Shown piece after piece: positions 12,461-63,815 of a stretch of 64,000 nt of DNA. The notes beneath the pieces were generated by a model. That model did no database searches, was not told the origin of the DNA, and saw only the letters and a program-made list of their open reading frames with translations. A program made the position numbers and the translations under genes. The stretch spans positions 781,685 through 845,684 of the forward strand of contig CAWIXE010000002.1 in assembly GCA_963840035.1 (NCBI GenBank), read 5' to 3'. Origin of the DNA: a candidate division FCPU426 bacterium (GTDB taxonomy: Bacteria; Oederibacteriota; PGYV01; Palsa-1178). The stretch's first letter is position 1; each line of letters begins with the position of its first letter.

Positions 12461-12903
12461 CTATTCAATCCGTATTTTCTTTATCTTCGCGCCTTTATAA
12501 TAATACCGCAGTATCTCGTCGTAATACCTGCCTTCGTCAGCCATCTGACGGGCGCCTTCCTGGGACATGCCCACGCCGTGGCCCCAGCCTTTACCGGTGA
12601 AGTAAAACATGTCCCCGCGCTTCTGGACCTCAAAATTAGTCGACTTGAGCTGGTCAACTCCTATGTAGGCGCGCAGGTCCTTGCCTTTTATTGGGGCGTC
12701 CCTGTTTACCCCGTGTATTATTGCGTTCTTTACCCTGTCGCTTGACGTCCTTTCAGTCACGCTTATGTCGTTTATGTATCCCGTATCCAGCCCGTTTTTG
12801 GCAAAGAGTTTGCCCAGCTTATCAGCGTCAATGGAATACTCCCATTTGAACTTTTTAGCGTTGGTGCTGTACGGGTCATCCACGCCCTGCAGATAGGTCA
12901 TGT
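12461..12903 (-). pseudogene. SpoIID/LytB-family protein, C-terminal fragment after frameshift
   Basis: The frame carries DMTYLQGVDDPYS...GKGWGHGVGMSQEGARQMADEGRYYDEILRYYY, the SpoIID C-terminal signature. The upstream part of track ORF 12461..13012 is out-of-frame overlap. Confidence 0.8.
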
Positions 12904-13685
12904 CTGCCTCCCCACACTTCCTCTGATGACGCGGTCCTCCCGCCTGAATTGGCGTGAAAAAATGCCTGTATGACTTCGCCGTTGTATGAAAGCACCTCTC
13001 CGGCTGTTTCATCTATGGCGCTGTTTGTCGGCGCGGCTTCGACGTCCCTGCCGCTATACACTTGAGAAGCGACTGAACAATCCAGGTCATATTCAGGGGT
13101 TTTATTCTTGAGCCTGTTATATATGGCAAAAGACCTTGCCGCTACCGCCTGCGCTTTTAAAACTTCCTTTTCCCAGCTGTAGGATACTTCCGAAGGAAGC
13201 ACACCGTAAAGGTATTGTTCAAGTTCCAGCTTGTTTACCAGCATTAATGTGCCGCTTTTTAGAAAAACCATGAAAGAACCGCGGTATGATTTTTTATTAA
13301 AGACGAGGTATCCGTCTTTACATGTAATTTCGAGTAATTTTTTACCGGTGTCGTCCCCGTTAATTGATATGAAGCCATCAGGCAGCGCGGTAATGACGAA
13401 CTTCTTCCCTTCAGCCACGGATGAATCGGCAATTGATGCCTGTCCGCTGGAGGAAACTCCAAGAGGGCCTGATGATTTGGCGAGAAGGACTTTAACCATT
13501 ATGACTTTTGAGTGTTCGTCCGGCTGCTCCGAAGCGTTATAGGTTTTGACTTCCTTGGATTTGAGTTCTTCTTTTGTTATTTTGACAGTTCTTCCTGTGC
13601 CCAGGTTTCTTGTAGACATGGAAACGCATGAAGTAAGCATGGCCAGAGCGCAGGCTGAAACAATCAGGATTGAAGGCCTGTTCAT
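12876..13685 (-). pseudogene. SpoIID/LytB-family protein, N-terminal fragment before frameshift
   Basis: Signal/lipobox N-terminus. YLYGVLPSEVSYSWEKEVLKAQAVAARSFA and FHANSGGRTASSEEVWGG are SpoIID motifs. The frame terminates 9 codons after WGG. Confidence 0.8.
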
Positions 13686-25651: not shown

Positions 25652-25842
25652 TGAATGTATTACCTCCTGGGGTAATTTGAGTTTTTTGTTATTTTAAAAC
25701 ATAACAAGCAGATGTGTTGGAAGACTAATTAGGGATTTTCCTCCTGGCTGACTTGTTTAACTGATATAAATATATATCTTTTTAGCCTGTTTGTCAACAT
25801 AAAATAAAAAGTTTTATGAAATTTCCCCAGACGTTTATATTA

Positions 25843-25917: not shown

Positions 25918-25986
25918 ACTTATTGGCTGGAGAAAATTTATCATAATAATATTTAACAGTCAATATCTAATTATATGAGATGATTG

Positions 25987-26337: not shown

Positions 26338-26432
26338 TTTTGTCCCCCTGCGTTATTTGATAACAATAAAATAGTATCATAAAACAGTGAAAAATCAAGG
26401 AATTGTTCCCTGTTTTGTGTTATATTATTCTC

Positions 26433-27392: not shown

Positions 27393-27510
27393 GACTTGTG
27401 ACCTATAAAACCAATCACATATCCCAAATCACAAATCCCAAAGAAAAAGGAAATCGATAATACAATTTGATTATTCAAAAACTGTTTGTGATTTGATTAT
27501 GATTTTTTTT

Positions 27511-46105: not shown

Positions 46106-46661
46106 AAGGAATGCCAGAATGACCGGAATTGCAAAGGATTTAGAAGATATAACAAGCATAGATGAACGGCCTGCGGAAGTTGAAACACGAGAGATTCCCG
46201 GACACTGGGAAGGCGACTTAATGATTGGCAGACTTCGGCAGTCAGCCATCGGAACGCTTGTTGAAAGAAAAACAAGGTATTTACGGATTGTCCGGTTAAA
46301 AAACAGGACGGCAAAAGAAGTCAAGAAACAATTTGAAGCTACGTTTAAGAAACACCCTAAACAACTTAGATTGAGCATGACATATGACCAAGGCAGAGAA
46401 ATGGCGGATCATAAAGCTCTAAGTAAGGCGTTAAATATTAAGATATATTTTGCGCACAAGAGAAGCCCGTGGGAACGTGGAACAAATGAAAACACAAATG
46501 GGTTAATACGGCAGTTTTTCCCTAAAGGCACAGACTTCAATAAGATAAGTTTAAAAGAACTCAGGTATGCAGAAAGACTGTTAAATCAAAGACCCAGAAA
46601 AACTTTGGGCTGGAAAACACCCGAAGAGGCGTTTTATCAAGATGTTGCGTTAAATACTTGA
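46050..46661 (+). pseudogene. IS30-family transposase, DDE catalytic part (+1 frame)
   Basis: The frame is open from ~46050 (KEKLLKQFRQKHSRRFKRN...). It contains IDERPAEVETREIPGHWEGDLMIG, MTYDQGREM and PWERGTNENTNGLIRQFFPKG. Confidence 0.8.
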
Positions 46662-47935: not shown

Positions 47936-48049
47936 TTATTTGATTATAACGATTTTTTTTACAACCTTATTTTTACCTGCAACAATCTCATAAAAATATG
48001 TGCCGTTTCCCGCCCATTTACCCGCGTCATTTCTTAAGTCCTGTCCTGC
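47936..48049 (-). pseudogene. orphan 37-codon C-terminal fragment of a FlgD-Ig / T9SS-CTD-like beta-sandwich tail
   Basis: Hand translation gives AGQDLRNDAGKWAGNGTYFYEIVAGKNKVVKKIVIIK*. It has no start codon and begins exactly at the left IR of the 2.75-kb mobile element. Confidence 0.6.
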
Positions 48050-48069
48050 CTGTCAATTATTGTCACTTT

Positions 48070-48927
48070 TTACCCCGCAAATTGGTTGACATTTTGTTCT
48101 CCGGATTTGATCAAACACAACCCCATATCTACAACTGATTTTACCACGGCCTTCCTCACAACGTCAAGTTTATCCAGTCCCGGTATTTTCTGTTTTTCAA
48201 TTTCCGCAATCGCATTTTCAGCTTTTTTAATTAGCTCATGCTTTTCTTCGTTTTTGTATATTTCTCCGTTTTTGAAAACTTCAGCGCTTGTTTTGCCGTC
48301 AAATATACGCCGCGGCATTTCGTGATTAATCTCATAAATCGCTCTTTCAAATTTGGCGTATACTTTTTCGTAATTTAACCCTCCTTTTTCAGTTTTCAGA
48401 TATTTCTCAAATATCTGATTTTCGCGCTCCAGTTTCCCGTTGAAAAGCGGATAATGCCCGGGGCTGGGCATCGTGAGAATCTCTTTTTCTTTCAAATAAC
48501 TTATTAATACTTCGTTCTGAAACTCAGAACCCCTGTCAGTTTTAACCACAAGCGGTTTTATTCCCTGCTCGTTCATCACGCGTTCAAGCAGGATTTTCGC
48601 CTTTTCACCGGTATTTGAATAACTCATAATCCAACCAAGCACACACCTTGAGTACTCCTCAAATACCAGCTGAACATACACATACCCTTCTTCGCAGCGT
48701 ATTTTAATCGTATCTAGCGCCCAGCTGACATGCTTTTTTAGCCATTCAACTGACTTGTACTCTTTCTTTCCCGCTTTTTGCTTTTTCCTGGGCCCAAAAT
48801 ACTCATAAACTATTTTTGCAACGCTGCTTGGCGATATACCCGCTTTTATTGCCAAAACATAATTAGTTGATATTTCCGAAAACCTCCGTTTTAATTCCAG
48901 CACCCGGAGTATTGTTTCACCAGACAA
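48070..48927 (-). CDS. IS3-family OrfB (rve/DDE integrase core); frame open upstream to the A9 site
   Basis: DDE residues in WALDT, KTDRGSEF, GKLERENQ. The same frame stays open back to 49119 in the -1 frame relative to orfA. Confidence 0.85.
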   Translation of the reverse strand: MSGETILRVLELKRRFSEISTNYVLAIKAGISPSSVAKIVYEYFGPRKKQKAGKKEYKSVEWLKKHVSWALDTIKIRCEEGYVYVQLVFEEYSRCVLGWIMSYSNTGEKAKILLERVMNEQGIKPLVVKTDRGSEFQNEVLISYLKEKEILTMPSPGHYPLFNGKLERENQIFEKYLKTEKGGLNYEKVYAKFERAIYEINHEMPRRIFDGKTSAEVFKNGEIYKNEEKHELIKKAENAIAEIEKQKIPGLDKLDVVRKAVVKSVVDMGLCLIKSGEQNVNQFAG

Positions 48928-49034
48928 GGCCCACGGCGCATGTTTCGGCCCTGTCTTTTGGGGTTCCAGGGTATCTTTCTTTTTCCACGCATAATAATAC
49001 TCCCTTGGAACCCCGATTGAATCAAAATACGCCT

Positions 49035-49541
49035 TTATACTTCCTCCGTTTTGTACGGTTTCTTCGGCACTTCTGAGTATATTTCTTTTAACACTTTCCG
49101 CATATTGGCGTTTTTTTTTGCGCCGTCTTCATCGTTTTTTTCAAAGAAGCTCGTTGCTTTCCTGGCTATCTGCAGTTCCTGTGTCGCCTTTTTCTTTTCT
49201 TCCTCCAGTATCCGGATCTTTTCCTCCAGCTTCCGCTGTTCTTCCTGCGCCTTTGTCACTGTTTCCCTCAGATCCTCTTCCTTCACGTAGTTCTTCGGCT
49301 TCCTGCCTCTCTTCTCCGTCTTCAGGAACGCCCTGGCTATCCCTTCCAGCGCTATTTTCTTCCACTCCCGGAACGTCTCCCTCGATATATCCATCTCCTC
49401 GCAGACCTGTTTCACCTTCTTTTCCTTTGCCATTACTTTCAGTACTGCCTGAAACTTCACCTCGTATGGGATTTCCCTGTAGTACTTCGTGGATTTCTGT
49501 TCCATCATTTCCTGCTGAATTTTCTCCTGTTCCATTTTCAA
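49035..49541 (-). CDS. IS3-family OrfA (HTH plus leucine-zipper)
   Basis: 168 aa. VKQVCEEMDISRETFREWKK HTH, heptad-rich EEQRKLEEKIRILEEEKKKATQELQIARKATSFFEK, then the A9 slippery run. Confidence 0.8.
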   Translation of the reverse strand: MKMEQEKIQQEMMEQKSTKYYREIPYEVKFQAVLKVMAKEKKVKQVCEEMDISRETFREWKKIALEGIARAFLKTEKRGRKPKNYVKEEDLRETVTKAQEEQRKLEEKIRILEEEKKKATQELQIARKATSFFEKNDEDGAKKNANMRKVLKEIYSEVPKKPYKTEEV

Positions 49542-50715
49542 TTACCCCCTTATTTTCTTTATTTTCCTTTTTTTCCTCCACTGCATCTAACCCCTCAACC
49601 ATAACACTTCCTTCTTTTGCTATTACCCGTATTTCTTTTCCGCCTATTTTTCCGATTAAATACATAGGCTCTTTTAATTTTCTCGGGTCAACAATTAGCG
49701 CGTCTTTTACCATTCCTGCCCCTTTTTCCATAACTTCACGCACCGACTTTTCAACGCTGAAAAACCTGTCAGCAGGCAGTAACCCATCAATCCCCTGATG
49801 CGGCCTTTTGAAGTTATACCATTCCACCCATTTTCCTATCTTTTCCTGCGCGTCTTCAAAGCTGGATATCGGCTCTTTACTTAGTAATTCCTGGTACATA
49901 TTCCGCCAGAGCGATTCAACTTTTCCGCAGGTTTGGGGATGATACGGCCGGCTTCTCAAATGGCTTATTCCGCTTCTTGTAAGGAATTTTTGAAATGTGC
50001 TTTTCCCCCTCCAACTGGCAAACTGCCTGCCGTTATCAGTAAGCACTTCTTTTGGCATGCCGTACTTTTCTATCGCGTTTTTTAGCACATCCAGGACCCT
50101 GTCGCTGGTTTGGTTCCGAAATACCCCTATACTGACGACAAACCGCGAATAATCATCCAGACATGCTATTACATATATCCGGTACAGCCCCTGCAGCATA
50201 AATGTCATTATATCCATCTGGTACATGTCGCCGGGTTTGCTTCTTTCAAAACGCTGCGGTTCCTTTTGACTATTTCCATGCCGCAGGCTTTTTTCCTGTA
50301 CCATTGTTGCTGTCTGAGGGTCGGTTCGGAGGACTTTTTCAATACCGTCGCGGCATACTTTTACGAACTTATTGCGCATCAAATAATCCCCGATTTTCTT
50401 AACTCCAATTCCGGGATTTTCCAGCTTTAATTTGACTATTTCCGCTTTTACCGCTTCCGGTACTTCCTGCGCTACTTTGCCGCCGCGGTTATCTTCCAGC
50501 CCCTCTTCACCGCCTGTTTTGTACCTTTCTTGCCAGCTTTTAAAAGTACCGACGCCCATTCCATACCACTTACAGAACATAGTAATAGGCGCACCTATCT
50601 GTTCAAATTCTTTTAGCAGTTTTAGTTTTTCTTCTTTTGAGTAGATTTTACCGGCGGAGTCGCTTTTTGTGTATTTTCTCTTTCCCTTTTCTTTCTTTTT
50701 CTTCATGAACCACAT
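49141..50715 (-). CDS. IS481-like DDE transposase; last ~130 codons are probably read-through
   Basis: N-terminal HTH. DDE residues in YQMDIMTF, LTDNGRQF, GKVESLWRN, plus YNFKRPHQGI. The C-terminal G/E-rich tail overlaps orfA out of frame. Confidence 0.8.
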   Translation of the reverse strand: MWFMKKKKEKGKRKYTKSDSAGKIYSKEEKLKLLKEFEQIGAPITMFCKWYGMGVGTFKSWQERYKTGGEEGLEDNRGGKVAQEVPEAVKAEIVKLKLENPGIGVKKIGDYLMRNKFVKVCRDGIEKVLRTDPQTATMVQEKSLRHGNSQKEPQRFERSKPGDMYQMDIMTFMLQGLYRIYVIACLDDYSRFVVSIGVFRNQTSDRVLDVLKNAIEKYGMPKEVLTDNGRQFASWRGKSTFQKFLTRSGISHLRSRPYHPQTCGKVESLWRNMYQELLSKEPISSFEDAQEKIGKWVEWYNFKRPHQGIDGLLPADRFFSVEKSVREVMEKGAGMVKDALIVDPRKLKEPMYLIGKIGGKEIRVIAKEGSVMVEGLDAVEEKKENKENKGVIENGTGENSAGNDGTEIHEVLQGNPIRGEVSGSTESNGKGKEGETGLRGDGYIEGDVPGVEENSAGRDSQGVPEDGEERQEAEELREGRGSEGNSDKGAGRTAEAGGKDPDTGGRKEKGDTGTADSQESNELL

Positions 50716-50775
50716 ATATTTTACCTCCTCTTTCGTTGAATTTCCAGAGGTAAAATGTCAACCTATTTCAATGGG

Positions 50776-53700
50776 TTAGCAGTTATGATAATTGACGGCT
50801 AGGATAATGAAAAGCGCCAGGTCATAACTGCCGTTTGCCAGCGATGATATGTCCCACACAGCCAGTTTGCCGCCGCTGTTTATCTGCATGTTCTTTGCAG
50901 TGGTTGTCACGGCGCCTCCGGTGTATTCCTCTGGCAGTTCCAGATATGTGTATCCTTCATCAGGATTTCCGTTTTCATCCATAACCACATAGTCAGACGG
51001 CCTGTATCCGAGCATATATCCCCTGAAAGCCTCGCCGCCGGTGGCGATCCCGGTCACTGCAAGAGTATCACCGTCTGCCTCCGCGTTTAACACCATATCA
51101 TCAGAGGCGGCTTTTCCGCCTATCTGGTTTATCTGCGGCACTATCCTTCCTTTTACTATATAGCACGTGCCGGCGCATTCATTGCCGAAAACATCCTGAA
51201 CGCGTATTTCCGCCCTGTAAACGCCGTCAGGTACATATCCGTAACCGCTCCCCATATCGCCCATGCCGTCCCATGTGATGCCGTTAACCGGCGCTGAAAG
51301 CACACTGCGGTATTGTGAAGTATTCGCTGTATCCGTCAGGAAGTTATAAAAATAATATTTTTCTCCCCTGTACTCGTCTATGTCGCCGTATATGCCTGAG
51401 TAGCGCAGGGTTATGGCTTCCTTTTTTTCTATGCCGTCGTATAATTCCCTGACGACCTTTCTCTGCGACGGATTGCTTTCATTTGTGGTAATTCTTACAT
51501 CAGCGTATACATACTTTGAAGTGGCTGCCATGGGCGTAAAGTATATGGCTGTGCATGTCCTGCCCTTTGACTCCTCTTCAGGGTTGAAAATAAACGGAGA
51601 GGCATACGGAGGGTAGCGCAGTACAGGCGGTTTGTCTGCCGGAAGAAGATAGTACTTTCCTTTTGCCTGAGCCACCTTTGTCATGGCAGTATAAGCGCCG
51701 GCAGGCTTCTGCGTCCCGGCTATGAGCGCCCTTGCTGTGGTGGTGACGCACTGCGCGCCGCATGTATTGCTCTCTGTCTCGTTATATATACCCAGATTAT
51801 CAGCGATTATACTTTTTGCCTTTGCCTTTTCATCCGCGTACACATAATCAGCCGAACCTGATGACAATCCAAATATGGAATCAAGCCCGGGTATGTCAAG
51901 GTCTTCATCAGTGTATCTTATGGTTATCTGCAGAGGCTCCGCATTATCGTACAGCAGTGTTGTATCCAGCGCGGGATATATGCCGTACTTGGATGTTATG
52001 GCGCTGTACATATCCGACATAAGCGGCGGGCTGCAGGGTATGTTTTCAGAGTAGACATTTACGTACTGTGTATCCTTTACTTTCCACGCAGGAACAAAAA
52101 GCTCAAACTTTATGTACGGGTCTGTCACTATGGTGCCTGCCGTGTTTGATACGTCTATAGGCGTGCCTATGGTCAGCTGCGCCCTGTCAACTTCCGCGTC
52201 CGCGCAGTCAGAGACGTAGTCATATCCCATGTTCACGTCGCTTATGGTAGTGCGTATGGTGTACTTGCCGTAGAGCCTTTTTGACCACACGTCCCATGCG
52301 GTCATAACCTGAAATAACGGCCCTTCTTTCCTCTGATTTGAGGCTGTTATGCCGCCGTCAGTAGAAAAATATGTGCAGGAAGTATTTGCTTTATCTATCC
52401 AGCCGGGCGCGTATTCCATGCGCCACTCGCTTAGCTTTAGCGCGTCAGCGCCTCCCATGGCTGTGATAAATGACCTTCCGGTATATCTGCTTTTAAGCTT
52501 AAACCTAAACTGCCCGGAAGCGGGCACTTTATTGTCTGTGATTTCAGACCCGTTTATATCTGCCATGACAAGGTCAGGGTTTATAGTGTCGTCAGGATAG
52601 GTTACCCTCACGTCTTTTCCGCCGCATCCGGCCGCGGTTATGACATCGCTCATGGCGCTTTCCCCGAGCCGTGCTGAAAGGAAATTAATGATACCTCCGC
52701 CCTGAGCCGCGATACTCGCGCCTATCCCGAACAAGCCGTTATCATATGCCTTCCACTTGTATGATGTCATGGGCACAGCGCGCGAGCCGTCCTGCGGGAA
52801 GGATGTACCTGCAAGGTATGCTGTGAATTTCTTTTCCACTGTATACCCTCCGGCGTTCATGGTCCAGACATTTATGTTGTTTTTCCCGGCGTGCGGCAGG
52901 GGTATGTCCAGCGCCCAGTCAGCCTTGCCGCGCTTGCCGTCTGCCGTGGTCATCAGGGTGGTGTCTATTTTCAGGATTGTTGTTACCACCGGGCCGTTAT
53001 CAGCCTGCCCGTACACCTGTATGAACTGCGGGAAGTAATCAGAGGCCCACCCTTCCACATGCAGTATGGCCCTGTCAGTGCTTACCCCGCGTATAGCACC
53101 ATCATAACTCTCCAGCGGCTTTTCCGCCTGCGGCCTGTAGGGATAAAAGACCCCTATTTCACCCGGCTCATCTATATCCTTCATAATCTGCTCGGGGTTC
53201 ATCTGCTGACCCTTACCGTAGCTTAAGGAACTCAGCATTTCATTTAGCAGTTCACCGAGGAACGGTATGAAATCAAGCTTTATGGGTATGGGCAGTTCCA
53301 GCTTCGGGAAATCAGGAAGTTTTAGTTCCTTCATTATTGCCGTGCCTTTTTTCGACACCTCATCACGCATGTTTTTTATAACCGGATTGTCGCTTCCAAG
53401 CTGATTTTGCACTGTATTCAAGAGATTTCCGGGTTTTGTATTAAATATTGAAACTATTATTGGCCCTATGTTTGTAATGCCGCTTGTTATTGGCTCAGGT
53501 ACATAGTGTAACATTTTCAATAAATCACCTATCAGACCCATCATTTCTTCATCCAGTGTCACAGGAGCCTTATCAGAACCGCCGCTTGCCTTTATGGTAA
53601 GTCTTTTTAGTTTTGAAAGGTTCGCGGATACAGCGGATAAATTCCTGTTACTGAATGTATCAAGCCATTTCCCGCCTTTTTGTATATCACTCTTTGTGCC

Positions 53701-55641
53701 GTCATACTTTTCTATATAGTCTGCCACCTTTGTAGCCATGTCCCATATCTCTTTTTCCCAGTCTATGTCTTTTAAATCAGGTATAGAACTTGATTCACAA
53801 CCGCCCAGTATGGACTTGGTTACAGTCTCAGAGCTTATCATGCTCTCTAACTGACTTGCTGTTATTTTATTTCCGCCAAACCCGGGAAAATTATTTCCAC
53901 CCGGTATTTTATCTGTCAGTTTATCAAGCTCTGATGCACCTGCTTCCATGGCTTTACTTACTGCCCCATCTACTGCTTTAAAAGCATAGGCTTTTATGGT
54001 TCCCTCTGCCCATGTCTTGCCGTATCCGATGGCCCCCTGTAAAAGGTACTGAGCAAATCCCGGATTAGAAGTCATCTGCAATCCGCCAAGCAGAGCCATG
54101 CCTATGCTTACCTTATTTGCTATTTTCTGGAATTCCATAACCCTGTCTATGGCTTCCTGATCTATCCCGCCCGCGCCGAGAAATGCGCCCGCGATGGCCA
54201 CGCTTGCCAGGTCATCTGCCATTTGCATGTTATTTGTATTTCCCATGCCGTTGGGGTCTGTTAAGTAATTTAATACAGCGTTTCCGGACATACCGTCTGC
54301 TATTATCTTTGAGTTTGCGGGCGTATCTTCTGCATTGCCTTTTGGCATTATCATGTTCATAGCCCCGTCTAAGCCGGTGTCTATGGTATCACACGCGTTA
54401 AATTTTATATTATCAAGACCTTTGCTCATGTCGAGCTTGACGAAAAGAAGCTGGGGCGGTTTTACCCCCCTGAAATTCAGGCTTAAGTTAAACATCCCGG
54501 ATAACTGCTTCCATACATCCGGCCCCTGAAGCTTATCAGGAAACCAGGCTATCTTCCACTTGGATAAATCCAGCCCCCATTTAAGTCCGCGTAAATCAGG
54601 CCGTGGTATTGCTTTTAATATCCCGGACAAATCAGGAACCTGCATACCAGGTATCCTGAATAACTTCCACAAATCAATCCCCGATAACTGCGGTAATATG
54701 CACAAATCCTGCCCCTGGTCATTTTTTAATCCAAGGTCACTTATAAAAGAAGCTAGCGTTGCCCCTGAAGCTATTTTCCCCGCCACAAAATCCGCGCTTT
54801 GCATGTTCACGCTTTTTAATCTTAACTTGTCACTTTCAGACATACAGGACAAATTGAGGTTGGGTAGCAGGTCTTTAATCGCTGCAAGAAGATCAAAACT
54901 GCCGAAGTTGATGTTAAGTTTGCTTAAAAGATCTTTCCAGTTTATTTTTAAGTCAGGAGCCTGGAAATCAAGGTTAAAAGAACTTGAGACCGAAGTCCCG
55001 GTTAAGGGTTTTACGATACCTGTGTAATCCTGTCCTATTTTTTCAGGGTCAGCATCCGCGGATTTTATCATTGAAAATATATTAGTTTCATCCGAGCCAA
55101 GAACGCTGTGCTCATACCCTTCCGCTTCATATAATCCATTATCTTTAAGTACAGGTGATTCTACAACTTGATCATTGAATGCCGCGTTATATTTGTCACT
55201 TACCTGCACGGCCAAAACAATCGGGATAGACTCATTATTTTTAACGTTCGAGAGCAAAGAATCATATTCGGCTTTAGATATTTTTCCTTGGATTATTTCG
55301 GGGTATTCAGGATTATTTTTTATTACATCGTATTTTATTATAGGTACTTCGTTTGCTTTTGGAAACTTTTTGTTCTTTAACGTTATTAATTTAGCGCTTA
55401 ACTCTTCAGTAAAATACAATCTTACGTCTAGGACGTTTTTATTGTCAGCACCTTTTGGCGGCTTTGATGCTTTTACACTTCTCAAAAAAAGATTGTTTTC
55501 AAATTTTACATTACCCCATTCAATCTGATAAACCGGATTACACCCCTGCATTATTTCAACCCGTTTTAGATAAACAGGACGCCACTTATAAAACTTTTCC
55601 AAGATGTCCTCTTCAGACCAATTTTGGTCGCTTAGATACAT
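50776..55641 (-). CDS. giant exported protein, distal 1621-codon segment (end of SpoIID-like module, long unknown region, FlgD-Ig-like domain); 3' end truncated by the mobile element
   Basis: Begins MYLSDQNWSEEDILEKFY, which completes the SpoIID-type GMSxWGA..(M).......IL..(F/Y)Y motif of the upstream ORF. FlgD-Ig-like ASPFIFNP...ITWDGMGDMGSGYGYVPDGVYRAEIRVQD. The last 7 codons (AVNYHNC) are IR-derived. Confidence 0.8.
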   Translation of the reverse strand: MYLSDQNWSEEDILEKFYKWRPVYLKRVEIMQGCNPVYQIEWGNVKFENNLFLRSVKASKPPKGADNKNVLDVRLYFTEELSAKLITLKNKKFPKANEVPIIKYDVIKNNPEYPEIIQGKISKAEYDSLLSNVKNNESIPIVLAVQVSDKYNAAFNDQVVESPVLKDNGLYEAEGYEHSVLGSDETNIFSMIKSADADPEKIGQDYTGIVKPLTGTSVSSSFNLDFQAPDLKINWKDLLSKLNINFGSFDLLAAIKDLLPNLNLSCMSESDKLRLKSVNMQSADFVAGKIASGATLASFISDLGLKNDQGQDLCILPQLSGIDLWKLFRIPGMQVPDLSGILKAIPRPDLRGLKWGLDLSKWKIAWFPDKLQGPDVWKQLSGMFNLSLNFRGVKPPQLLFVKLDMSKGLDNIKFNACDTIDTGLDGAMNMIMPKGNAEDTPANSKIIADGMSGNAVLNYLTDPNGMGNTNNMQMADDLASVAIAGAFLGAGGIDQEAIDRVMEFQKIANKVSIGMALLGGLQMTSNPGFAQYLLQGAIGYGKTWAEGTIKAYAFKAVDGAVSKAMEAGASELDKLTDKIPGGNNFPGFGGNKITASQLESMISSETVTKSILGGCESSSIPDLKDIDWEKEIWDMATKVADYIEKYDGTKSDIQKGGKWLDTFSNRNLSAVSANLSKLKRLTIKASGGSDKAPVTLDEEMMGLIGDLLKMLHYVPEPITSGITNIGPIIVSIFNTKPGNLLNTVQNQLGSDNPVIKNMRDEVSKKGTAIMKELKLPDFPKLELPIPIKLDFIPFLGELLNEMLSSLSYGKGQQMNPEQIMKDIDEPGEIGVFYPYRPQAEKPLESYDGAIRGVSTDRAILHVEGWASDYFPQFIQVYGQADNGPVVTTILKIDTTLMTTADGKRGKADWALDIPLPHAGKNNINVWTMNAGGYTVEKKFTAYLAGTSFPQDGSRAVPMTSYKWKAYDNGLFGIGASIAAQGGGIINFLSARLGESAMSDVITAAGCGGKDVRVTYPDDTINPDLVMADINGSEITDNKVPASGQFRFKLKSRYTGRSFITAMGGADALKLSEWRMEYAPGWIDKANTSCTYFSTDGGITASNQRKEGPLFQVMTAWDVWSKRLYGKYTIRTTISDVNMGYDYVSDCADAEVDRAQLTIGTPIDVSNTAGTIVTDPYIKFELFVPAWKVKDTQYVNVYSENIPCSPPLMSDMYSAITSKYGIYPALDTTLLYDNAEPLQITIRYTDEDLDIPGLDSIFGLSSGSADYVYADEKAKAKSIIADNLGIYNETESNTCGAQCVTTTARALIAGTQKPAGAYTAMTKVAQAKGKYYLLPADKPPVLRYPPYASPFIFNPEEESKGRTCTAIYFTPMAATSKYVYADVRITTNESNPSQRKVVRELYDGIEKKEAITLRYSGIYGDIDEYRGEKYYFYNFLTDTANTSQYRSVLSAPVNGITWDGMGDMGSGYGYVPDGVYRAEIRVQDVFGNECAGTCYIVKGRIVPQINQIGGKAASDDMVLNAEADGDTLAVTGIATGGEAFRGYMLGYRPSDYVVMDENGNPDEGYTYLELPEEYTGGAVTTTAKNMQINSGGKLAVWDISSLANGSYDLALFIILAVNYHNC

Positions 55642-57976
55642 AGCCCCCCCATGCGCTCATACCGCATTTGGAACCATTTAATAAGTCCGGCGGAACAGCT
55701 ACGTCTGCTTCATCGACAATATTTTCATGCAGATATGATTGAGCTTGTTTTATGACATTTTGTGAGCTTTGAATTATAGTATTTTTTGCGTTTTTCCCGG
55801 TTGAGTATCCAAATACGTTAGTTAATAAATACGGAATTACCACTTTGTCATAGACACGCGTTCTTTTGAAATCATCTTTACTCATCAGTATTTTATTGAA
55901 CCAAAAAGCCTTAACGTAGTATCTGATGTTTCCGTCCTGACTGATGGGCTTTGCTATATCATTTATGGCAAGGTTTATTAAATCCTTTGTTTTACTGCTG
56001 CCATAAAATGTTTTATAAGGGATATAGTATTTCTGGCTGTCAGTATAACCATTTACTTTTATGTCCACATCAGAATTATTGTATGATTCATGTAATAATA
56101 AAGTGTAAGCCGCAACAGCAAGCGCTTTAAAGCCATTTAAATATTTCGTGTCAGAAAAATCAGCATCACCAACCAGCCCATATAGTACGCCTTTTAAGTA
56201 ATCTCTGATATCAACATTCAGTATTTCAGGAGACGGAGTCGGTATAGGCACGCCAGTCTGAACAACCGTCGGAGTAATTGTTCCTGTTTCAATACTTGTA
56301 GCCGATGAACATGGTGTTAATAACACGATTTCCGTCGATTCTTCCGTAGGTATTTGATGCAGATCTTTAATAATGACTTTGTTCAGATAAAATACTGTTG
56401 CTGTCGGTGTTGGCACAGTCGGGGTTGTAGTGCCGGACGGAGTTGCAGTGATTTTGCCTGAATATAAAACGAATTCTTTTGGCACTATAACAATTCTATG
56501 ATTAGTATCCGCCCCGCCAAGATTAGTTTCATCTTGATCCTCCTCTGACATTTTGCTCTCATAACTCAGCCATTTTCCGTCAGAAGTTCTTTTTGCAACA
56601 GTCTCTGGATCCCGGTCAAGTTTATCCTGCATAAGACTATGTGCTTCTACAAATAAAAAATATTTGTCACTATATTTCCTCGCTTCTTCATCTGACAACT
56701 CACAACTCCCGGTCCATTTAGTATATACCGTGCCACCGGCATCAACCTCCATCGGGTCGAACCAGCCATCAACAGAATCCGGTTTAAATTCGACAGTAAA
56801 TTTACTATCCTTAGCATTTTTTTTAAGACCAACTGATATTTTCTCTTTTCGCCATTGGCCGTAGTATTTTACAGTCATTGCCTTGCTAAAAAACAGTGTA
56901 ATTCTGATTTTTCCCGAACCAATATTTCCTGTTTTAGTAATGCTCATAGGACCGCGGGCGGTTTCTATTCCGTTCGAGTCTTTCGTTACAGGCCATTCAG
57001 CAGCATACACAGTCTTCCAGTCTGCAGGGGTTTTGTCAACTTTATTAAAATCTTCAAATGTTATCTGTTCTAATTTCACTTTTTTCAAATATGGCGGGGA
57101 CATACGTCGTGGTTTGTAATTTTCACCGCCATCCGATCTTTCTATATTGCATGATTCATAGTTTGCATTTGTTTTTAGTGTATACGCGCAATTAAAGACC
57201 CTCGGCATATTTCCAGACAAATACTGATTATCAGAAGCATCTATCGTGTTTAAGGTATTTGCACTTGGTGGCTCAATCGCAATCGCAACATGATTTTTAT
57301 TAGCTAACGGCCTTATTATTAAGTCTCCGGGTCCTATTTCATTCCACATTAAGGGATCAGAAAAAATATCATTCGCAAGATGTCCTACCCCCGGATGCCA
57401 TGCAATTCCGTTGGTCTTTACTATCAATGGAATTCCATAACAATTTGCAACAAGTCCTGAACAATCAATCCCGGTATAATCATACATTTCATATTCGCCA
57501 TTAATCGGCGGACGATAATTTGGATAAGGAGGATTATTTACAAGGTTCGAATCGTAAATTACGTTATATCCTCCCGCAAGACATTGCGGCCTTCTATTTG
57601 GAGTTAGGTTTGATAACAATTTTCCGCCAGTCAGTTGTCTTCCGCCATCGCCCATGATTTCAAGCGAATCGCGCAAACCATAGCCATATGGGACGCCTGT
57701 ATATAAATATCCTGCAGGAACTACATTGCCGGAATTATCAACCGCACCGACACCGTCGGGGAAGAATGGAAAAGGTGTAGCATTATTTCTATCACTTCCA
57801 TCTACATTGGAAATGTCAGCATGCAATGTATTTGTAAACACCCTGGCGTTTGTTATGGAACACTTCCATTTATGATCACGGTAGCTTTTTGCCACTTCAA
57901 CGACGTCATTCCCGTCTTTGGCAATTAATTCGCTACAAAACACACAAATCAGAAAAAAACTTAATAACTTTCTCAA
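55613..57976 (-). CDS. giant exported protein, proximal 787-codon segment (signal peptide, NlpC/P60-like peptidase, Thr/Pro linkers, SpoIID-like module)
   Basis: MRKLLSFFLICVFCSELIA signal. GIDCSGLV...PGDLII...NHVAIAI...IDAS (NlpC/P60 Cys-His pattern). YLKGVLYGLVG...FKALAVAAYTLLL...CGMSAWGG (SpoIID-like). Confidence 0.8.
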   Translation of the reverse strand: MRKLLSFFLICVFCSELIAKDGNDVVEVAKSYRDHKWKCSITNARVFTNTLHADISNVDGSDRNNATPFPFFPDGVGAVDNSGNVVPAGYLYTGVPYGYGLRDSLEIMGDGGRQLTGGKLLSNLTPNRRPQCLAGGYNVIYDSNLVNNPPYPNYRPPINGEYEMYDYTGIDCSGLVANCYGIPLIVKTNGIAWHPGVGHLANDIFSDPLMWNEIGPGDLIIRPLANKNHVAIAIEPPSANTLNTIDASDNQYLSGNMPRVFNCAYTLKTNANYESCNIERSDGGENYKPRRMSPPYLKKVKLEQITFEDFNKVDKTPADWKTVYAAEWPVTKDSNGIETARGPMSITKTGNIGSGKIRITLFFSKAMTVKYYGQWRKEKISVGLKKNAKDSKFTVEFKPDSVDGWFDPMEVDAGGTVYTKWTGSCELSDEEARKYSDKYFLFVEAHSLMQDKLDRDPETVAKRTSDGKWLSYESKMSEEDQDETNLGGADTNHRIVIVPKEFVLYSGKITATPSGTTTPTVPTPTATVFYLNKVIIKDLHQIPTEESTEIVLLTPCSSATSIETGTITPTVVQTGVPIPTPSPEILNVDIRDYLKGVLYGLVGDADFSDTKYLNGFKALAVAAYTLLLHESYNNSDVDIKVNGYTDSQKYYIPYKTFYGSSKTKDLINLAINDIAKPISQDGNIRYYVKAFWFNKILMSKDDFKRTRVYDKVVIPYLLTNVFGYSTGKNAKNTIIQSSQNVIKQAQSYLHENIVDEADVAVPPDLLNGSKCGMSAWGGYVSKRPKLV

Positions 57977-57990
57977 AAAAACACCTCGGT

Positions 57991-59187
57991 TTATTTATTT
58001 ACTTTGGATAATTTTATAATTCTTAATTTTGCCATACAGTCTTCACTTAAAGGCTTCCAGCATACGCTTTGCACCAAAAAAATTGTTCCATTATCATCAA
58101 TAGTACCGTTTTCATTATATTCTTCTGGAAAAATACCACATGGTCCTACCCAGTCCTTGCCCTTTCGAAACAACTCTGTTTTAATTTTTGAAATTAATCT
58201 GCCATCATTATTGACGACAAAAATACCGCTTAAATCTTTGTCATTGCCAGTATATATATATACGTATATATTCCCGTTTTTGTCATACAGAGCACTATTA
58301 TTGAGTGTTTGACACTGCACAAATTCAAAAATATCTTTTATTGATTCTATGTTAACTCGATAATTATTCTTGTTTTTTCCATAGGCGTTTATCGACGCCG
58401 TGTGTTTTGCCAGACCATTATTTTCTTCTTTTTGAAAAGCTGTTTTACTAATTGTCCTTGAATATCCTAAATCCACAAATCCTTTTTTCATTTGTTTCGC
58501 TAGTTCGTCATTTTCAATCTTTAAATCAACAACCCTGCTGACTAAACCAGCATCGTTTAGCACTTCTACAGTCCTATTAACAGAGTCATACAAATATATC
58601 GACCCGTTCTCAGCGACATGTAACGAGCCTTTATTTATCATGGGTTTCATATTATCTGTTACTTTGTTCTTTTTTAGTTTATAAGGATTGCTTATAAATA
58701 TTTGTTTCAAAAAATTTCCATTTAAATCAAACTTCTGGATTCTCGCATTGCCCTGATCAAGTATGTATATAAACTTGTTCGTAATTTCTACAGCAACTGC
58801 GCTATATATCAAAAAAGTACCCGGTGGGGTTCTGTTATTGCTTGTGTACTCATAAATATCATCATTATTTTTATCGTCCGACCCCATTATTGTCTTACCT
58901 TTATAATGTATTCTGTAACCAGCATCTTTTCCAACAAAAGGCGCGTCCATTATCACCTTGTAATCATACTGCACAGGCAGTTTTGTGTCGTCTATCTCCG
59001 ATAAATTGAGATTTACTGTTATTATCTCGCCATCCGAAGCTGTTCCTGTCAAACTATCGCCAGATGATACCAGTGTTGAGGTTACTGAAACGGCAGTAAT
59101 CTCAGACCCCACAGCTGCCATCCTCCCCTGCGCCATAACAACCGCGCAAAGAAGCGAAATTATACAAATAAAAATGATTTTTTTCAT
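57991..59187 (-). CDS. secreted NHL-repeat-like beta-propeller protein
   Basis: 398 aa. Signal peptide. NHL-like units FIYILDQGNARIQKFDLNGNFLKQI, GSIYLYDSVNRTVEVLNDAGLV, GNIYVYIYTG. Confidence 0.6.
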   Translation of the reverse strand: MKKIIFICIISLLCAVVMAQGRMAAVGSEITAVSVTSTLVSSGDSLTGTASDGEIITVNLNLSEIDDTKLPVQYDYKVIMDAPFVGKDAGYRIHYKGKTIMGSDDKNNDDIYEYTSNNRTPPGTFLIYSAVAVEITNKFIYILDQGNARIQKFDLNGNFLKQIFISNPYKLKKNKVTDNMKPMINKGSLHVAENGSIYLYDSVNRTVEVLNDAGLVSRVVDLKIENDELAKQMKKGFVDLGYSRTISKTAFQKEENNGLAKHTASINAYGKNKNNYRVNIESIKDIFEFVQCQTLNNSALYDKNGNIYVYIYTGNDKDLSGIFVVNNDGRLISKIKTELFRKGKDWVGPCGIFPEEYNENGTIDDNGTIFLVQSVCWKPLSEDCMAKLRIIKLSKVNK

Positions 59188-59204
59188 GTTTCCTCCAGTT
59201 TTAT

Positions 59205-60356
59205 TTACGGTATATATTTTAAAATTTTGCCTTTATTGCTCTGTCTGTACGCAACATATGGCGTTCCGCTATAAACTGCAAGCGAAACAAATTCAGAATA
59301 ATTTGTAATACTACTGTCTGCAAGTTTCGTCCATATAGATTGCGCGTTGTCATATCTGTATAGTATTATTTGATAACTTTTTGCATTTGTCATTCCAAAA
59401 GCCACGTAAGGTATATCATTGTATACATCAATACTAGCTTCGCTAACGTCAGATGATACGTCATTCCCAATTGTGTTCCAAGAACTATTTCCGGTATTAT
59501 ATTTAAATAAATTAGGCACTCCGACATCATCCGTTGCAAAAAATAATGTTCCATTATTTGACGACTTTATGGTTTGAAACAGAAACGATTCTGAAAAACC
59601 ATTTGTTCCAATTGGATTCCAAGCATTCCCGAGGTTATCAAAAGAAACCACCGAACATAAACCATCTGAATTGTTAGAATAAGAAACATAAGGTATATTG
59701 TTATATATATCAATCGCCGTATTAAAAACAGCCCCAGAAGTAATTCCCGGGCTATATAGCGCAGTAAAACTATTTCCTGAAGAATCAAATCTCATGACTG
59801 TTAGTTTATTTGAATTTGCGGCATCCTTGTAGGCGATAAATGGCGTGACACCATCTACAGCAAAGGAATTCTGTTCTGCAACCCCCGCCGAAAATCCGTA
59901 CTTCCCCATTACAGTCCAAGTATTCCCAACACTGTCATACTTCATAACCGTCGCTTTTGAAGAGTTTGCAACGTCACTGAAAGCCACGTACGGTACTCCG
60001 GATGTGTCTAAATCCATGCACACATAATCTGCCTCACCGGGTGATACCGCCTCGGCTCCCACCTGTGTCCACGCGCTTGCGCCGCTCACGAGCTTTTTTA
60101 CCACGGCTTTCTTTGACTGCCCTTCATCTTTATATGCCACATACAGCGTCCCGGCAGAGTCTGCTTTTAAGGTCACATACTTAACATCCGTATCACAGAA
60201 CACCCCTCCGGCCACAGTCTCCCAGTGTACCGGCGTAGGTGAAGGATCCGCCGGAGGCGCTGCCGGGTTATTGTTCTTTTTCCCGCATCCAGGCATAAGA
60301 GCAACCGCGATAAATACAACCAGTAAAACTATTATAACCTTGTTATTTTTTTTCAT
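59205..60356 (-). CDS. lipoprotein with seven ~48-aa repeats (predicted beta-propeller)
   Basis: Lipobox LMPGC, Pro-rich linker, then seven copies of the [GN]xP[YF][VI][AS][YF]..D..N..K.TVMK[YF]D......W..[VI]G..GFS pattern. Confidence 0.65.
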   Translation of the reverse strand: MKKNNKVIIVLLVVFIAVALMPGCGKKNNNPAAPPADPSPTPVHWETVAGGVFCDTDVKYVTLKADSAGTLYVAYKDEGQSKKAVVKKLVSGASAWTQVGAEAVSPGEADYVCMDLDTSGVPYVAFSDVANSSKATVMKYDSVGNTWTVMGKYGFSAGVAEQNSFAVDGVTPFIAYKDAANSNKLTVMRFDSSGNSFTALYSPGITSGAVFNTAIDIYNNIPYVSYSNNSDGLCSVVSFDNLGNAWNPIGTNGFSESFLFQTIKSSNNGTLFFATDDVGVPNLFKYNTGNSSWNTIGNDVSSDVSEASIDVYNDIPYVAFGMTNAKSYQIILYRYDNAQSIWTKLADSSITNYSEFVSLAVYSGTPYVAYRQSNKGKILKYIP

Positions 60357-60366
60357 TTTCCCCTCT

Positions 60367-61485
60367 TTATTTTGTTTTCTTAACCTGCATCCATTTAAAC
60401 TCCACAGGCGTATTTATTTCGTGGTTATTTATTTTTGTTATTATGCGGCTTTTTTCATTTCCCATACCGGACTCAACTTCCGTCTCTTCCGGCAGTTCGA
60501 TTTCCTTTTCGCCCTGTATTGTTTTGAGATATTCCTGATCCCCTTGGGCTGTGAGCTTTGGGCTCTGTTTTCTTATTTTAGACCGCTTTTTCCCCTTCAC
60601 CCTCATATGCCCTATCTTCTCCCCTGCAAGGTTATACATCTCCTGCTCTTCCACCATACCTGTCTTCATGTTTATCTTTTCCACACGTTTTGCTATCATG
60701 CCGCGGATGGCTTTGTCTTTGCTTTTATTAAACCATGCCACAGACTGCTCTTTAAGGGTTTCTCCGGCTTTATTTTTAGCCTTTGAGCTTCTTACTTTTT
60801 CTATGGCCTTATCCCATTCATCATTCATCTTGCCTGTTTTTTTGTCCGTGTACTCCACTTCCGCAAAGTCATCTTTATCTTTCAGAAACCCCAGTAACCC
60901 ACTGCCGCCTTTTTTCCTGCCCTTTACTTTAACGTCGAGTTCATCGGTTTCTATGTGGTTAGTATCAAAGCGTGAGGCATACCCCGCGTCAGTAAAACTC
61001 TTCTTACCGAAAGATGTCCCTGCAAGCGCCGCATACACGCTTCCGCCTTTTCCGTATCCATTGAGCCCGCCGATACCCGCTATCTTCTGCACCTCAGCCT
61101 GTACATCCGCATCCGCGGTGACCCGCACATGCGAGCCGTCTGCCATGAGATAAGTAACGGACATATCGGAAGTATCCACCAGAAACTGCATGGTAAAAAT
61201 TCCATTTGTTGTGACCATCACCTTATTATTCCCGGCGTTGTCAGATTGCATGACGTAGTCATAAGATAAAGCCTGGCTCTTGCCGCCATATTCCGTCAAA
61301 GACTCCACACCCGCTGACAAACTCCGCACATCACCGCTGTTTTGTGACTGCGCATCTATGACATCCGCCACAGTGTATTCGCCTTCGGCGTATGTGTTGG
61401 AGGATAACACGAATGTAAATACAAAAACAAATAATGCAACAGATAATGAAATATTTAAACGCTTTGATAAGTGTTTGACAGTCAT
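60367..61485 (-). CDS. hypothetical secreted protein with Lys-rich C-terminal half; first gene of the operon
   Basis: 372 aa. Signal peptide ...SSNTYAEGE. No family confidently recognised (possibly a LolA-like fold in the N-terminal half). Confidence 0.5.
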   Translation of the reverse strand: MTVKHLSKRLNISLSVALFVFVFTFVLSSNTYAEGEYTVADVIDAQSQNSGDVRSLSAGVESLTEYGGKSQALSYDYVMQSDNAGNNKVMVTTNGIFTMQFLVDTSDMSVTYLMADGSHVRVTADADVQAEVQKIAGIGGLNGYGKGGSVYAALAGTSFGKKSFTDAGYASRFDTNHIETDELDVKVKGRKKGGSGLLGFLKDKDDFAEVEYTDKKTGKMNDEWDKAIEKVRSSKAKNKAGETLKEQSVAWFNKSKDKAIRGMIAKRVEKINMKTGMVEEQEMYNLAGEKIGHMRVKGKKRSKIRKQSPKLTAQGDQEYLKTIQGEKEIELPEETEVESGMGNEKSRIITKINNHEINTPVEFKWMQVKKTK

Positions 61486-61530
61486 TTTTACCCCACCCTT
61501 TTGTGTGTCTTATTGGTTTTACCGCAGATA

Positions 61531-61559
61531 ATTATATGATTTCAAGCAAGTTGCGTCAA
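61531..61559 (-). promoter_or_regulatory. consensus sigma70 promoter of the five-gene exported-protein operon
   Basis: Minus strand reads TTGACG - 17 nt - TATAAT, ~45 nt upstream of ATG 61485, which has an AAGGGTGGGG SD. Confidence 0.65.
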
Positions 61560-61668
61560 GCAGTAATAATGATTTATATTGAGGAATAATTGTAAGGCAC
61601 ATTGGATTTTGACATGCTAAATTATAATATAAATGAATATTCTGAGATTTGCGATTTAAATTATTCGG

Positions 61669-63321: not shown

Positions 63322-63348
63322 TAGTGCCCCCTGAATTTTAAATTTTAG

Positions 63349-63431
63349 ATTTTATATTTTAGATTTAATGTGCGCTTATGCGCGTATTATTATAATAAAG
63401 TGCGAAGCACATTAAATCTAAAATATAAAAT
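63349..63431. repeat. long AT-rich hairpin with perfect 25-bp arms
   Basis: ATTTTATATTTTAGATTTAATGTGC ...33 nt... GCACATTAAATCTAAAATATAAAAT. Downstream of the SemiSWEET gene. Confidence 0.85.
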
Positions 63432-63451: not shown

Positions 63452-63715
63452 CTACCCGTTCCCCTTATATAAAAACTTCTGTATTATCACTATCATATTG
63501 CAGGTTATGGCAAAACTATTTGCCAGGATCATCGGCATTTCCTTTAACATTATGCCATAAATGAGCCATAAAATCATCCCTAATACCAGCAGTACCGGCT
63601 GCCAGAGCGCCACGTCATCCACTTTTTTTGTTACAAACCCCTTTATCATCTGAGGCATAAAGCCTATGGATGATAACAGTCCTGCCGCGTATCCGATAAT
63701 TGTTACGTCTTTCAT
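63452..63715 (-). CDS. SemiSWEET / PQ-loop family transporter
   Basis: 87 aa, three TM helices, PQ motif (GFMPQMIKGF). Confidence 0.8.
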   Translation of the reverse strand: MKDVTIIGYAAGLLSSIGFMPQMIKGFVTKKVDDVALWQPVLLVLGMILWLIYGIMLKEMPMILANSFAITCNMIVIIQKFLYKGNG

Positions 63716-63815
63716 GAAGTCTCCTTTTTTAGTGAGTGGCGAGCGGCGGGTGGTGATTAGCAGTCAAAATTGTTTCTGTCTGCTACCCACTACTCACCAC
63801 TCACAACCCACAGGT

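Follow-up and report, generated by a model that had tools for sequence, protein, structure and literature searches.

A seven-guanine tract splits a giant surface-protein gene: probable recent gene decay rather than an evolved phase switch

Homopolymer runs are known sites of slippage. In Campylobacter, poly-G/C tracts are over-represented and cluster at 9-10 G, and switching has been shown for tracts of at least 8; for tracts at the cut-off, the mutation rate may be too low for switching to be efficient (PMC6321876). The locus described here resembles the contingency loci of Campylobacter, Neisseria and Haemophilus in that the reading frame of a surface-protein gene contains, on its coding strand, a poly-G tract that is one unit off the length keeping the frame. 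It was found in an uncultivated Goldbacteria-like bacterium, within a stretch of 64 kb that was analysed as a whole and is called the window in the following.

The only G/C run of at least 7 nt in the window is a C7 on the plus strand (55644-55650), equal to a G7 on the coding strand; the minus strand around the tract reads GCATGGGGGGGCTATG, the G7 being window positions 55650..55644. ORF A terminates shortly behind the tract with ...CGMSAWGGYVSKRPKLV, its final 10 codons (GYVSKRPKLV) representing an out-of-frame read-through. ORF B begins with MYLSDQNWSEEDILEKFY and overlaps ORF A by 29 nt in a different frame (Table 1). Removal of one G, thus G6, joins the two into one 2399-codon ORF with the reading ...CGMSAWGAMYLSDQNWSEEDILEKFY..., and tblastn of a homologue of 5,485 aa (P0003) against the window mapped the frame switch to 55643-55647. 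The first-pass annotation had stated that the G7 splits a giant gene within a conserved motif and that G6 would fuse the ORFs into about 2,400 codons. The former was borne out by the sequence and the frame switch, the latter agrees with the reconstruction and with homologues that are continuous at this position. The frame break interrupts an invariant motif of the family (G196, S198, A202 and M203 of alignment A3), and the apparent start of ORF B is this motif's invariant internal methionine and no real start codon. One G7 run per se is not improbable in a sequence of this length; non-random is that the sole run lies exactly at the frame break in an invariant motif. Other G6 runs are located at 25340-25345 and 54465-54470.

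Table 1 Features of the giant gene and of the inserted element, in window positions
Feature	Position	Strand	Evidence
G7 homopolymer	55644..55650	-	sequence, tblastn frame switch, homologue reading, Logan contig L001
ORF A, 787 aa, 5' part of giant gene	55613..57976	-	40 homologues
ORF B, 1621 aa	50776..55641	-	sequence
ORF B, gene-derived part, ~1612 codons, +1 frame	50805..55641	-	collinearity with P0003 and P0015
ORF B, last 9 codons and stop (...LAVNYHNC*)	50776..50804	-	encoded by the IS terminal inverted repeat
IS, ~2.76 kb	48044..50804	-	imperfect inverted repeats and transposase ORFs
IS481-family transposase	49141..50715	-	within IS
HTH ORF	49035..49541	-	within IS
Second rve-domain ORF	48070..48927	-	within IS
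3' remnant of giant gene, encoding GQDLRNDAGKWAGNGTYFYEIVAGKNKVVKKIVIIK*	47936..48046	-	local alignment to the C-termini of P0003 and P0015

The protein family was obtained by an exhaustive search of representatives with ORF A as query, yielding 40 homologues; a 309-aa query covering the junction matched a single protein (P0024). Intact members of this giant-protein family were found in Goldbacteria-like MAGs. Nine homologues, among them proteins of 5,485 and 5,302 aa, are uninterrupted across the junction (...GMSAWGAM[YF]LS...ILK.FYHW.PV...) and the homologues read W-G/A-A-M in frame at the site. Downstream, the part of ORF B that stems from the gene aligns collinearly to residues 644-2241 of P0003 and, in a second homologue, P0015, to residues 656-2243, at about 51 % identity. 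As nine homologues read through the site, the G6 of the Trp-Gly-Ala codons (TGG GGG GCT) is the ancestral frame and the G7 a +1 insertion relative to it. Species-representative genome contigs, which do not include the source genome, were scanned with the trimmed alignment A2 for related loci. All seven were open across the site; the shortest frame has 829 codons and the longest more than 4,000. In five of the seven the site is encoded by G3-G4 runs (TGGGCN, TGGGGC, TGGGGA), and a G6 in frame at these codons was encountered solely in a distant paralogue (L007). The comparison of related loci recommended in the first-pass annotation thus revealed no conserved G7. Relatives sharing a ribH of at least 90 % amino acid identity have a DNA identity of 67-75 % and lack the entire 15-kb island; they offer no orthologous tract. 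The ORFs may alternatively have become separate working proteins, an exported one of 787 aa and a second one of 1621 aa. Both are long and uninterrupted, and the G run could serve as a weak Shine-Dalgarno-like sequence before the ATG of ORF B. However, the spacing from G run to ATG is just 2-4 nt, ORF B has neither signal peptide nor sorting tail, the break falls within a folded domain and its invariant motif, and no homologue is organised in this way; we consider such a functional split highly improbable. Translation through the G7 into a full-length (IS-truncated) protein, either by RNA-polymerase slippage or by a +1 ribosomal frameshift on GGG-G, is hardly conceivable. Perfect re-pairing of a tRNA-Gly would be feasible once GGG GGG G is read with a +1 shift, but the sequence offers no evident stimulator, be it a slow or stop codon in the A-site or a well-spaced upstream SD-like element, and the homologues use no frameshift at this site. 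Efficient transcriptional slippage is documented mainly on A/T runs of at least 9 nt, which also counts against recoding.

A miscalled homopolymer was the other explanation offered in the first-pass annotation, and the window assembly indeed carries single-base insertions. One additional base, at 12903, disrupts a SpoIID homologue, another one at 27361 alters a cation-efflux gene, and both are absent from contigs of the Logan assembly (L017 and L018, run ERR11594406). The essential dnaE is likewise split by an additional base, at about 18572 and inside the HAAGV motif; among the Logan contigs none spanning this position was found, and the insertion was judged an error on account of the broken motif and by analogy alone. 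All three of these frame-breaking differences are +1 insertions, the same direction as a change from G6 to G7, and homopolymers are classic error sites. The tract itself is, however, reproduced in the Logan assembly of the same run: contig L001 of 12,585 bp is identical (100 %) to window positions 50780-63364, the G7 included, and stops at 50780 inside an inverted repeat of the IS. The demonstrated errors are located in non-homopolymer contexts, and the homopolymers of at least 7 nt agree between the assemblies in 21 of 21 cases within the 22.4 kb compared. Length and identity of the Logan contig suggest accurate reads. Since the Logan assembly keeps the G7 and lacks the two other insertions, an assembler error at this site is unlikely, and the G7 is probably real at the consensus level. 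Should the 1.7-Mb contig stem from this read set as well, both assemblies would have any systematic homopolymer miscall in common. A true G6, with an unbroken frame at this point and the truncation by the IS unchanged, is accordingly unlikely, but among the alternatives we assign it the most weight.

The two ORFs are most likely the remains of one giant secreted or surface protein gene, to judge from homologues of about 5,300-5,500 aa. The homologues comprise an N-terminal domain of the peptidoglycan-hydrolase type, a SpoIID-like domain, a long central region, CBM_3 modules and a C-terminal sorting tail of the type IX secretion system (T9SS). ORF A covers a signal-peptide-like N-terminus, a weak NlpC/P60-like region, Thr/Pro linkers and most of the SpoIID-like domain. 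Searches of Pfam and NCBIfam gave no significant match for either ORF as a whole, and phmmer with ORF A gave no match in the PDB. The first-pass annotation had read the junction as the end motif of the SpoIID family. The predicted GMSAWGAM...IL..FY is present in all homologues found, which supports the motif, but the assignment to SpoIID is weak: Pfam SpoIID (PF08486) scored 18.7 bits (E = 0.003), below the gathering threshold of 23. The family profile matched in the PDB only the SpoIID sequences 5txu and 5i1t (E 0.02-0.03), with GMSAWGAM...ILK.FYH aligned to GVGMSQWGAEGM...ILSHYY of 5txu (E 0.024). The best Foldseek match was 5i1t with a probability of 0.85, at a TM of just 0.35 and a model pLDDT of 61, and hhalign of the family against the window's own SpoIID reached 22 % probability. 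In the weak HMMER alignment, the catalytic Glu of 5txu (GVLAGEM) faces a hydrophobic 'l' of the family consensus (gvllglv). The likeness to the C-terminal motif thus appears real but weak. Two collinear blocks resemble SpoIID/LytB proteins, an N-terminal one, Y[IL]KGV...KA..VAA.T, and the C-terminal GMS.WGA...IL..[FY]Y, where the frameshift sits; SpoIID/LytB is the sole PDB family by sequence profile and the best match by fold. Unlike in these proteins, all scores remain under curated thresholds and the domain forms part of a polypeptide exceeding 5,000 aa. A canonical SpoIID gene is present elsewhere in the window (12461..13685). At the C-terminus, P0003 and P0015 carry CBM_3 modules together with a Por_Secre_tail, as giant T9SS type-A cargo proteins do; the tail of P0003 matched PF18962 / TIGR04183 with 44.3 bits (cut-off 23). 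In contrast, the tail in the window is cut off from its gene by the IS and a gap of about 3,200 codons, thus the encoded product is without the sorting domain. A complete Por_Secre_tail is absent from the window gene; about 30 detached residues are left.

The homology to P0003 stops at 50803, corresponding to residue 2241 of 5485, directly at an insertion sequence bordered by imperfect inverted repeats (50773-50804 / 48044-48075). A target-site duplication was not seen at the IS, a second copy was not found within the window, and a plasmid collection gave no match to the element. Several IS lie within 5 kb, IS481-like, IS3-like and IS30-like. Residues 2242-5485 of P0003 had no other match in the window by tblastn at E <= 1e-3. 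Directly beyond the IS and adjoining ribH, a 3' remnant keeps just ~35 terminal codons of the secretion tail; it corresponds to the T9SS tails of P0003 and P0015 over their final ~30 residues and in where the stop lies. The alignment scores of 66 and 73 compare with 23 +/- 5 for shuffled sequences, and none of 2000 shuffles scored as high. The synteny SWEET ... ribH-nusB-ftsH is retained on both flanks of the island, thus the missing part was not removed by an inversion at this breakpoint. An inversion at the IS moving the 3' part away was rejected on this ground and because the extreme 3' end of the gene follows right after the IS. The truncation by the IS with the loss of about 3,000-3,200 codons, some 9.7 kb of the gene, represents a second, irreversible lesion. 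Further decay downstream had been named in the first-pass annotation as the sign of a fixed pseudogene, and it was encountered here in the form of the IS and about 3,200 lost codons.

Slipped-strand phase variation, in which a population toggles between G6 (ON) and G7 (OFF) and varies the expression of the giant surface protein, was the main suggestion of the first-pass annotation. It would fit a G7 in the 5' third of a giant gene with a signal peptide, one step off the in-frame length, and the in-frame G6 of the distant paralogue at the same codons. A run of at least 7 G/C meets the permissive cut-off of PhasomeIt (PMC6321876), and the tract lies exactly at this limit. The ON length G6, however, is below it, and a G9 would add a residue to the invariant motif. 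The tract is not conserved in homologues, five of seven relatives having G3-G4, nor are such tracts over-represented in the 64-kb window; runs of at least 7 G/C are depleted, one observed against 8.1 +/- 3.3 per window in dinucleotide shuffles. A change in repeat number would not restore an intact functional gene, as the IS truncates it at about residue 2241 of 5485; also the ON protein would still be without about 3,200 residues and the T9SS sorting domain. A single sample has yielded the locus, thus no variation is documented, and the 1.7-Mb contig and L001 both have G7. With the tract not conserved, such runs depleted, G6 below the cut-off and the IS lesion present, the proposed switch is not supported, and we regard phase variation as very unlikely. 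Even more doubtful is the specific case of a working G6/G7 switch that toggles a giant cell-wall-active protein in this bacterium with the IS-truncated form being functional; if true, the reach of phase variation by poly-G would grow to include an environmental candidate phylum and a protein longer than 2,000 aa.

The locus is probably a recent slippage frameshift in a giant gene undergoing loss, thus a recent pseudogene, and not an evolved switch. Because the last ~3,000-3,200 codons were also lost to a mobile element, ordinary gene decay is the most likely reading, not an ON/OFF switch. The frame is broken compared with intact homologues, and an additional, independent disabling lesion is present. 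Replication slippage would have expanded G6 to G7 in the conserved Trp-Gly-Ala codons, which would end translation 10 codons later within the SpoIID-like domain. Independently, about 3,200 codons would have disappeared through an IS481-type element and a deletion associated with it, so that of the sorting tail just ~35 terminal codons persist beside ribH. The frameshift would be fixed, not polymorphic, and presumably no useful full-length product is made; a minority of cells with G6 or G8 may exist in the population. The decay appears recent since 7.2 kb are stop-free apart from the frameshift and the IS lesion. Such stop-free ORFs would fit a very recent inactivation, but equally a continued selection on a truncated product. 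For the annotation, the 'hypothetical proteins' of 787 aa and 1621 aa should become a single entry marked as a disrupted gene, with the start of ORF B being an internal Met and its final nine codons IS-derived. Two frameshifts of the window (SpoIID, cation efflux) did not stand up to the second assembly from this sample, and the G7 did; the case shows how real frameshifts can be sorted from consensus errors in a long-contig MAG. In biological terms, it documents no more than that an IS-rich genome of 1.7 Mb has recently lost a giant surface protein. The intact family, whose members have about 5,400 aa and combine M23 or NlpC/P60-like, SpoIID-like, CBM_3 and T9SS-tail modules, may merit study. 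In comparison with the contingency loci of Campylobacter, Neisseria and Haemophilus, the tract differs in its lengths (OFF 7 and ON 6 versus typically 8-10), in the missing conservation, in the lack of an excess of tracts and in that slippage alone cannot restore the gene. From the frameshift pseudogenes that arise by slippage at short homopolymers in IS-rich genomes that are losing genes, the locus differs in that 7.2 kb are still open, thus the inactivation must be recent. It shares with them the expansion of a coding homopolymer by one base with a stop few codons on, a second disabling lesion made of an IS and an adjacent deletion, and several IS nearby.

The giant gene is split on the minus strand into ORF A, its 5' part, and ORF B, its continuation in the +1 frame, which overlap by 29 nt. 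At 55680-55621 this strand reads ...AAATGCGGTATGAGCGCATGGGGGGGCTATGTATCTAAGCGACC..., with seven G at 55650-55644 (G7; C7 on the plus strand), and deletion of one G from the tract (G6) yields a single ORF of 2399 codons. Re-reading of the window sequence recovered all features described in the first-pass annotation, each at the coordinates given there. Pfam and NCBIfam recognised neither ORF. An exhaustive HMMER search obtained 40 relatives of ORF A; nine reach beyond the junction, and all nine cross it in one frame. The homologous proteins P0003 (5,485 aa) and P0015 (5,302 aa) present AGMSAWGAMFLSAHAFKVDNILKDFYHWAPVYLKK and VGLSAWGAMYLSPNFSTQLILKAFYH there, the same read-through pattern is found in P0010, P0024, P0031, P0007, P0011, P0013 and P0018, and the window read with G6 gives CGMSAWGAMYLSDQNWSEEDILEKFYKWRPVYLKR, in residue-by-residue agreement with the homologues. 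In a tblastn comparison, P0003 followed the ORF A frame with residues 381-645 as far as 55643 and took up the ORF B frame at 55647 with residues 644-2241, thus the frame break lies inside the G run. The homologues indicate that G6 (TGG GGG GCT, Trp-Gly-Ala) is the ancestral length and G7 a +1 insertion. G, S, A and M of the junction motif are invariant in the family alignment, and G9 would insert an extra residue there. The putative initiator of ORF B corresponds to the invariant internal methionine of this motif. A functional split into two genes is highly improbable, and recoding at the frame break is even less probable.

Coordinates of the features in the window
Feature	Position	Strand	Description
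ORF A	55613..57976	minus	787 aa; C-terminal end ...CGMSAWGGYVSKRPKLV, then stop
ORF B	50776..55641	minus	1621 aa; N-terminal start MYLSDQNWSEEDILEKFY
Canonical SpoIID gene (PF08486, E 6e-26)	12461-13685	minus	extra base 12903 in non-homopolymer context; split into 269-aa and 183-aa ORFs
dnaE (essential)	16658-20084	minus	extra base ~18572 in conserved HAAGV motif; split into 515-aa and 639-aa ORFs
Cation-efflux (CDF) gene	26403-27392	plus	extra base 27361 relative to L018; corrupted C-terminus
Insertion element	48044-50804		imperfect inverted repeats 50773-50804/48044-48075 and 50752-50768/48079-48095
3' remnant of giant gene	48046-47936	minus	encodes GQDLRNDAGKWAGNGTYFYEIVAGKNKVVKKIVIIK, then stop; directly past the other IS end

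The window originates from a 1,707,679-bp contig (NCBI, ENA) and was compared with a separate Logan assembly of run ERR11594406. The Logan contig L001 (12,585 bp) was 100 % identical to window 50780-63364, G7 included. The contigs L017 and L018 equalled window 11501-14120 and 20265-27442 save one base each, extra in the window at 12903 and 27361, respectively. Lacking base 12903, L017 encodes an intact 407-aa SpoIID protein (P0065); judged from this comparison, the SpoIID frameshift is a consensus error or a minority variant of the window assembly. The corrected CDF protein ends in ...HISHSTLQLESGDASQCKTCDL and stop. For dnaE, removal of the extra base restored a single 1141-aa ORF; no Logan contig covering ~18572 was found, and this frameshift is very probably another assembly error. 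All three sporadic single-base insertions of the window assembly are located outside homopolymers. The sequence around them includes GCAGC/CTGCAG-like stretches, which might hint at motif-linked basecalling errors. The Logan assembly lacked both checkable insertions (12903, 27361), yet was identical in G7, and 21 of 21 homopolymers of at least 7 nt agreed between the assemblies over the 22.4 kb compared. G7 is very likely the true majority sequence in the one sample from which the giant-gene locus is known, with the reservation that the two assemblies may rest on the same reads and could then share a systematic homopolymer miscall; a sequencing artefact common to both is unlikely.

ORF B is homologous to P0003 and P0015 only down to window 50803, which corresponds to residue 2241 of 5,485 in P0003 (tblastn), and its final nine codons plus stop (LAVNYHNC, then stop) are IS sequence. 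Besides an IS481-family transposase, the insertion element encodes an HTH protein and a second protein with an rve domain. L001 ends at 50780, inside the inverted repeat, the expected behaviour for a multicopy element; the window held no second copy, the plasmid collection gave no match, and a target-site duplication was not visible at the IS ends. The make-up is unusual for a single IS: a 524-aa IS481-family transposase and an IS3-like pair (HTH ORF, rve ORF) share one set of outer inverted repeats and could represent two nested or adjacent elements. The 3' remnant can be aligned to the final ~30 residues of P0003 (...NDRGEEVANGVYLLEVSIQKKTVKKKIVLIN, then stop) and of P0015, with the stop in the same position and scores of 66 and 73 versus 23 ± 5 for shuffled sequences (0 of 2000 shuffles as high). 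The C-terminus of P0003 consists of a CBM_3 module, then a type-IX-secretion sorting domain (PF18962, E 2.5e-9; TIGR04183, 44.3 bits, cut-off 23). Since the remnant just past the IS matches the extreme C-terminus and stop of the homologues, a full-length gene of ~5,400 codons must once have ended just upstream of ribH, and an IS-associated deletion evidently took away ~3,200 codons. This truncation presents the decay of the downstream ORF that the first-pass annotation had named, together with a uniform G7 population, as the sign of a fixed pseudogene. In relatives with the ribH-nusB-ftsH-folE-folP... block, MutS-SWEET immediately precedes ribH. In the window an island of ~15 kb (48044-63400) separates the SWEET gene (63462-63730) from ribH, with intact synteny on either side; the syntenic locus of the relatives L009-L016 lacks it. 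The island comprises a CoA-disulfide reductase with rhodanese domain, three hypothetical genes in one orientation that match NHL/Kelch-type beta-propellers weakly, the giant gene and the IS. An inversion carrying the missing 3' part elsewhere is argued against by the synteny retained on both flanks. Between nusB and ftsH (45656-46661, plus strand), where relatives have no such element, lies an IS30-like transposase in two pieces, an HTH_38 ORF of 149 aa and an rve ORF of 180 aa, whose frames differ through either a real split or another consensus error.

At its N-terminus ORF A resembles a signal peptide and then shows weak similarity to NlpC/P60 (E 0.013), in place of which P0003 has a peptidase M23 domain. 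The frameshifted domain matched Pfam SpoIID in an N-terminal block below the cut-off (E 0.003; 18.7 bits, cut-off 23). A profile of eight family members retrieved only SpoIID structures from the PDB (5txu, E 0.024; 5i1t, E 0.031) in two collinear blocks, with GVGMSQWGAEGM...ILSHYY opposite GMSAWGAM...ILKKFYH; the earlier reading of a SpoIID motif was right in substance. Foldseek placed 5i1t on top (probability 0.85, TM 0.35) for a modest AlphaFold model (pLDDT 61.5). The SpoIID catalytic Glu appears not to be conserved, and we term the domain SpoIID-like for its remote resemblance, without counting it as a member of the SpoIID family. The nearest named relatives belong to Candidatus Goldiibacteriota/Goldbacteria, 'Spirochaetia' MAGs and candidate division FCPU426, with three paralogues in one MAG (USDV_metabat.159). 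P0003, P0015 and the loci L002-L008 represent an uncharacterised protein family whose giant members (5,300-5,500 aa) occur in MAGs of Goldbacteria-like bacteria, FCPU426 and 'Spirochaetia'. Its layout is an N-terminal M23 or NlpC/P60-like region, the SpoIID-like domain, a conserved core of ~1,600 aa without Pfam match, CBM_3 repeats with Thr/Pro linkers between them, and finally a T9SS sorting tail.

The first-pass annotation had proposed a phase-variation switch. A coding-strand poly-G tract that is one unit out of frame and falls within the 5' third of the gene for a surface protein fits this proposal, and seven G reach the permissive cut-off of at least 7 (PMC6321876). However, the tract arises merely as a side effect of Trp-Gly-Ala codons, and it is not conserved: the site reads TGGGCG, TGGGCT (twice), TGGGCC, TGGGGC or TGGGGA in related loci, in-frame G6 occurs in only one of seven, and in all seven the frame stays open without interruption, for 829 to more than 4,000 codons. 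G/C runs are depleted, not enriched, in the window; G7 is the sole run of at least 7 across the 64 kb versus 8.1 ± 3.3 expected from dinucleotide shuffles. In Campylobacter, poly-G tracts occur above chance with a peak at 9-10 G, switching was demonstrated at 8 or more, and tracts that just reach the cut-off may lack the instability needed for efficient switching (PMC6321876). The ON state of the supposed switch would be G6, and a return to G6 by slippage would leave a protein still without 57 % of its length and the secretion tail. True phase variation of this IS-truncated gene is thus distinctly unlikely. We consider it probable that G7 is a genuine +1 slippage mutation and that the giant gene, truncated by the IS, was inactivated recently; slippage during replication would have extended G6 to G7 in a genome whose IS elements are active. 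The main use of the case is a correct annotation and a worked example for separating real frameshifts from consensus errors. Replication slippage at short homopolymers is a textbook mechanism, and the event, of low general interest, is a further instance of a kind already known.
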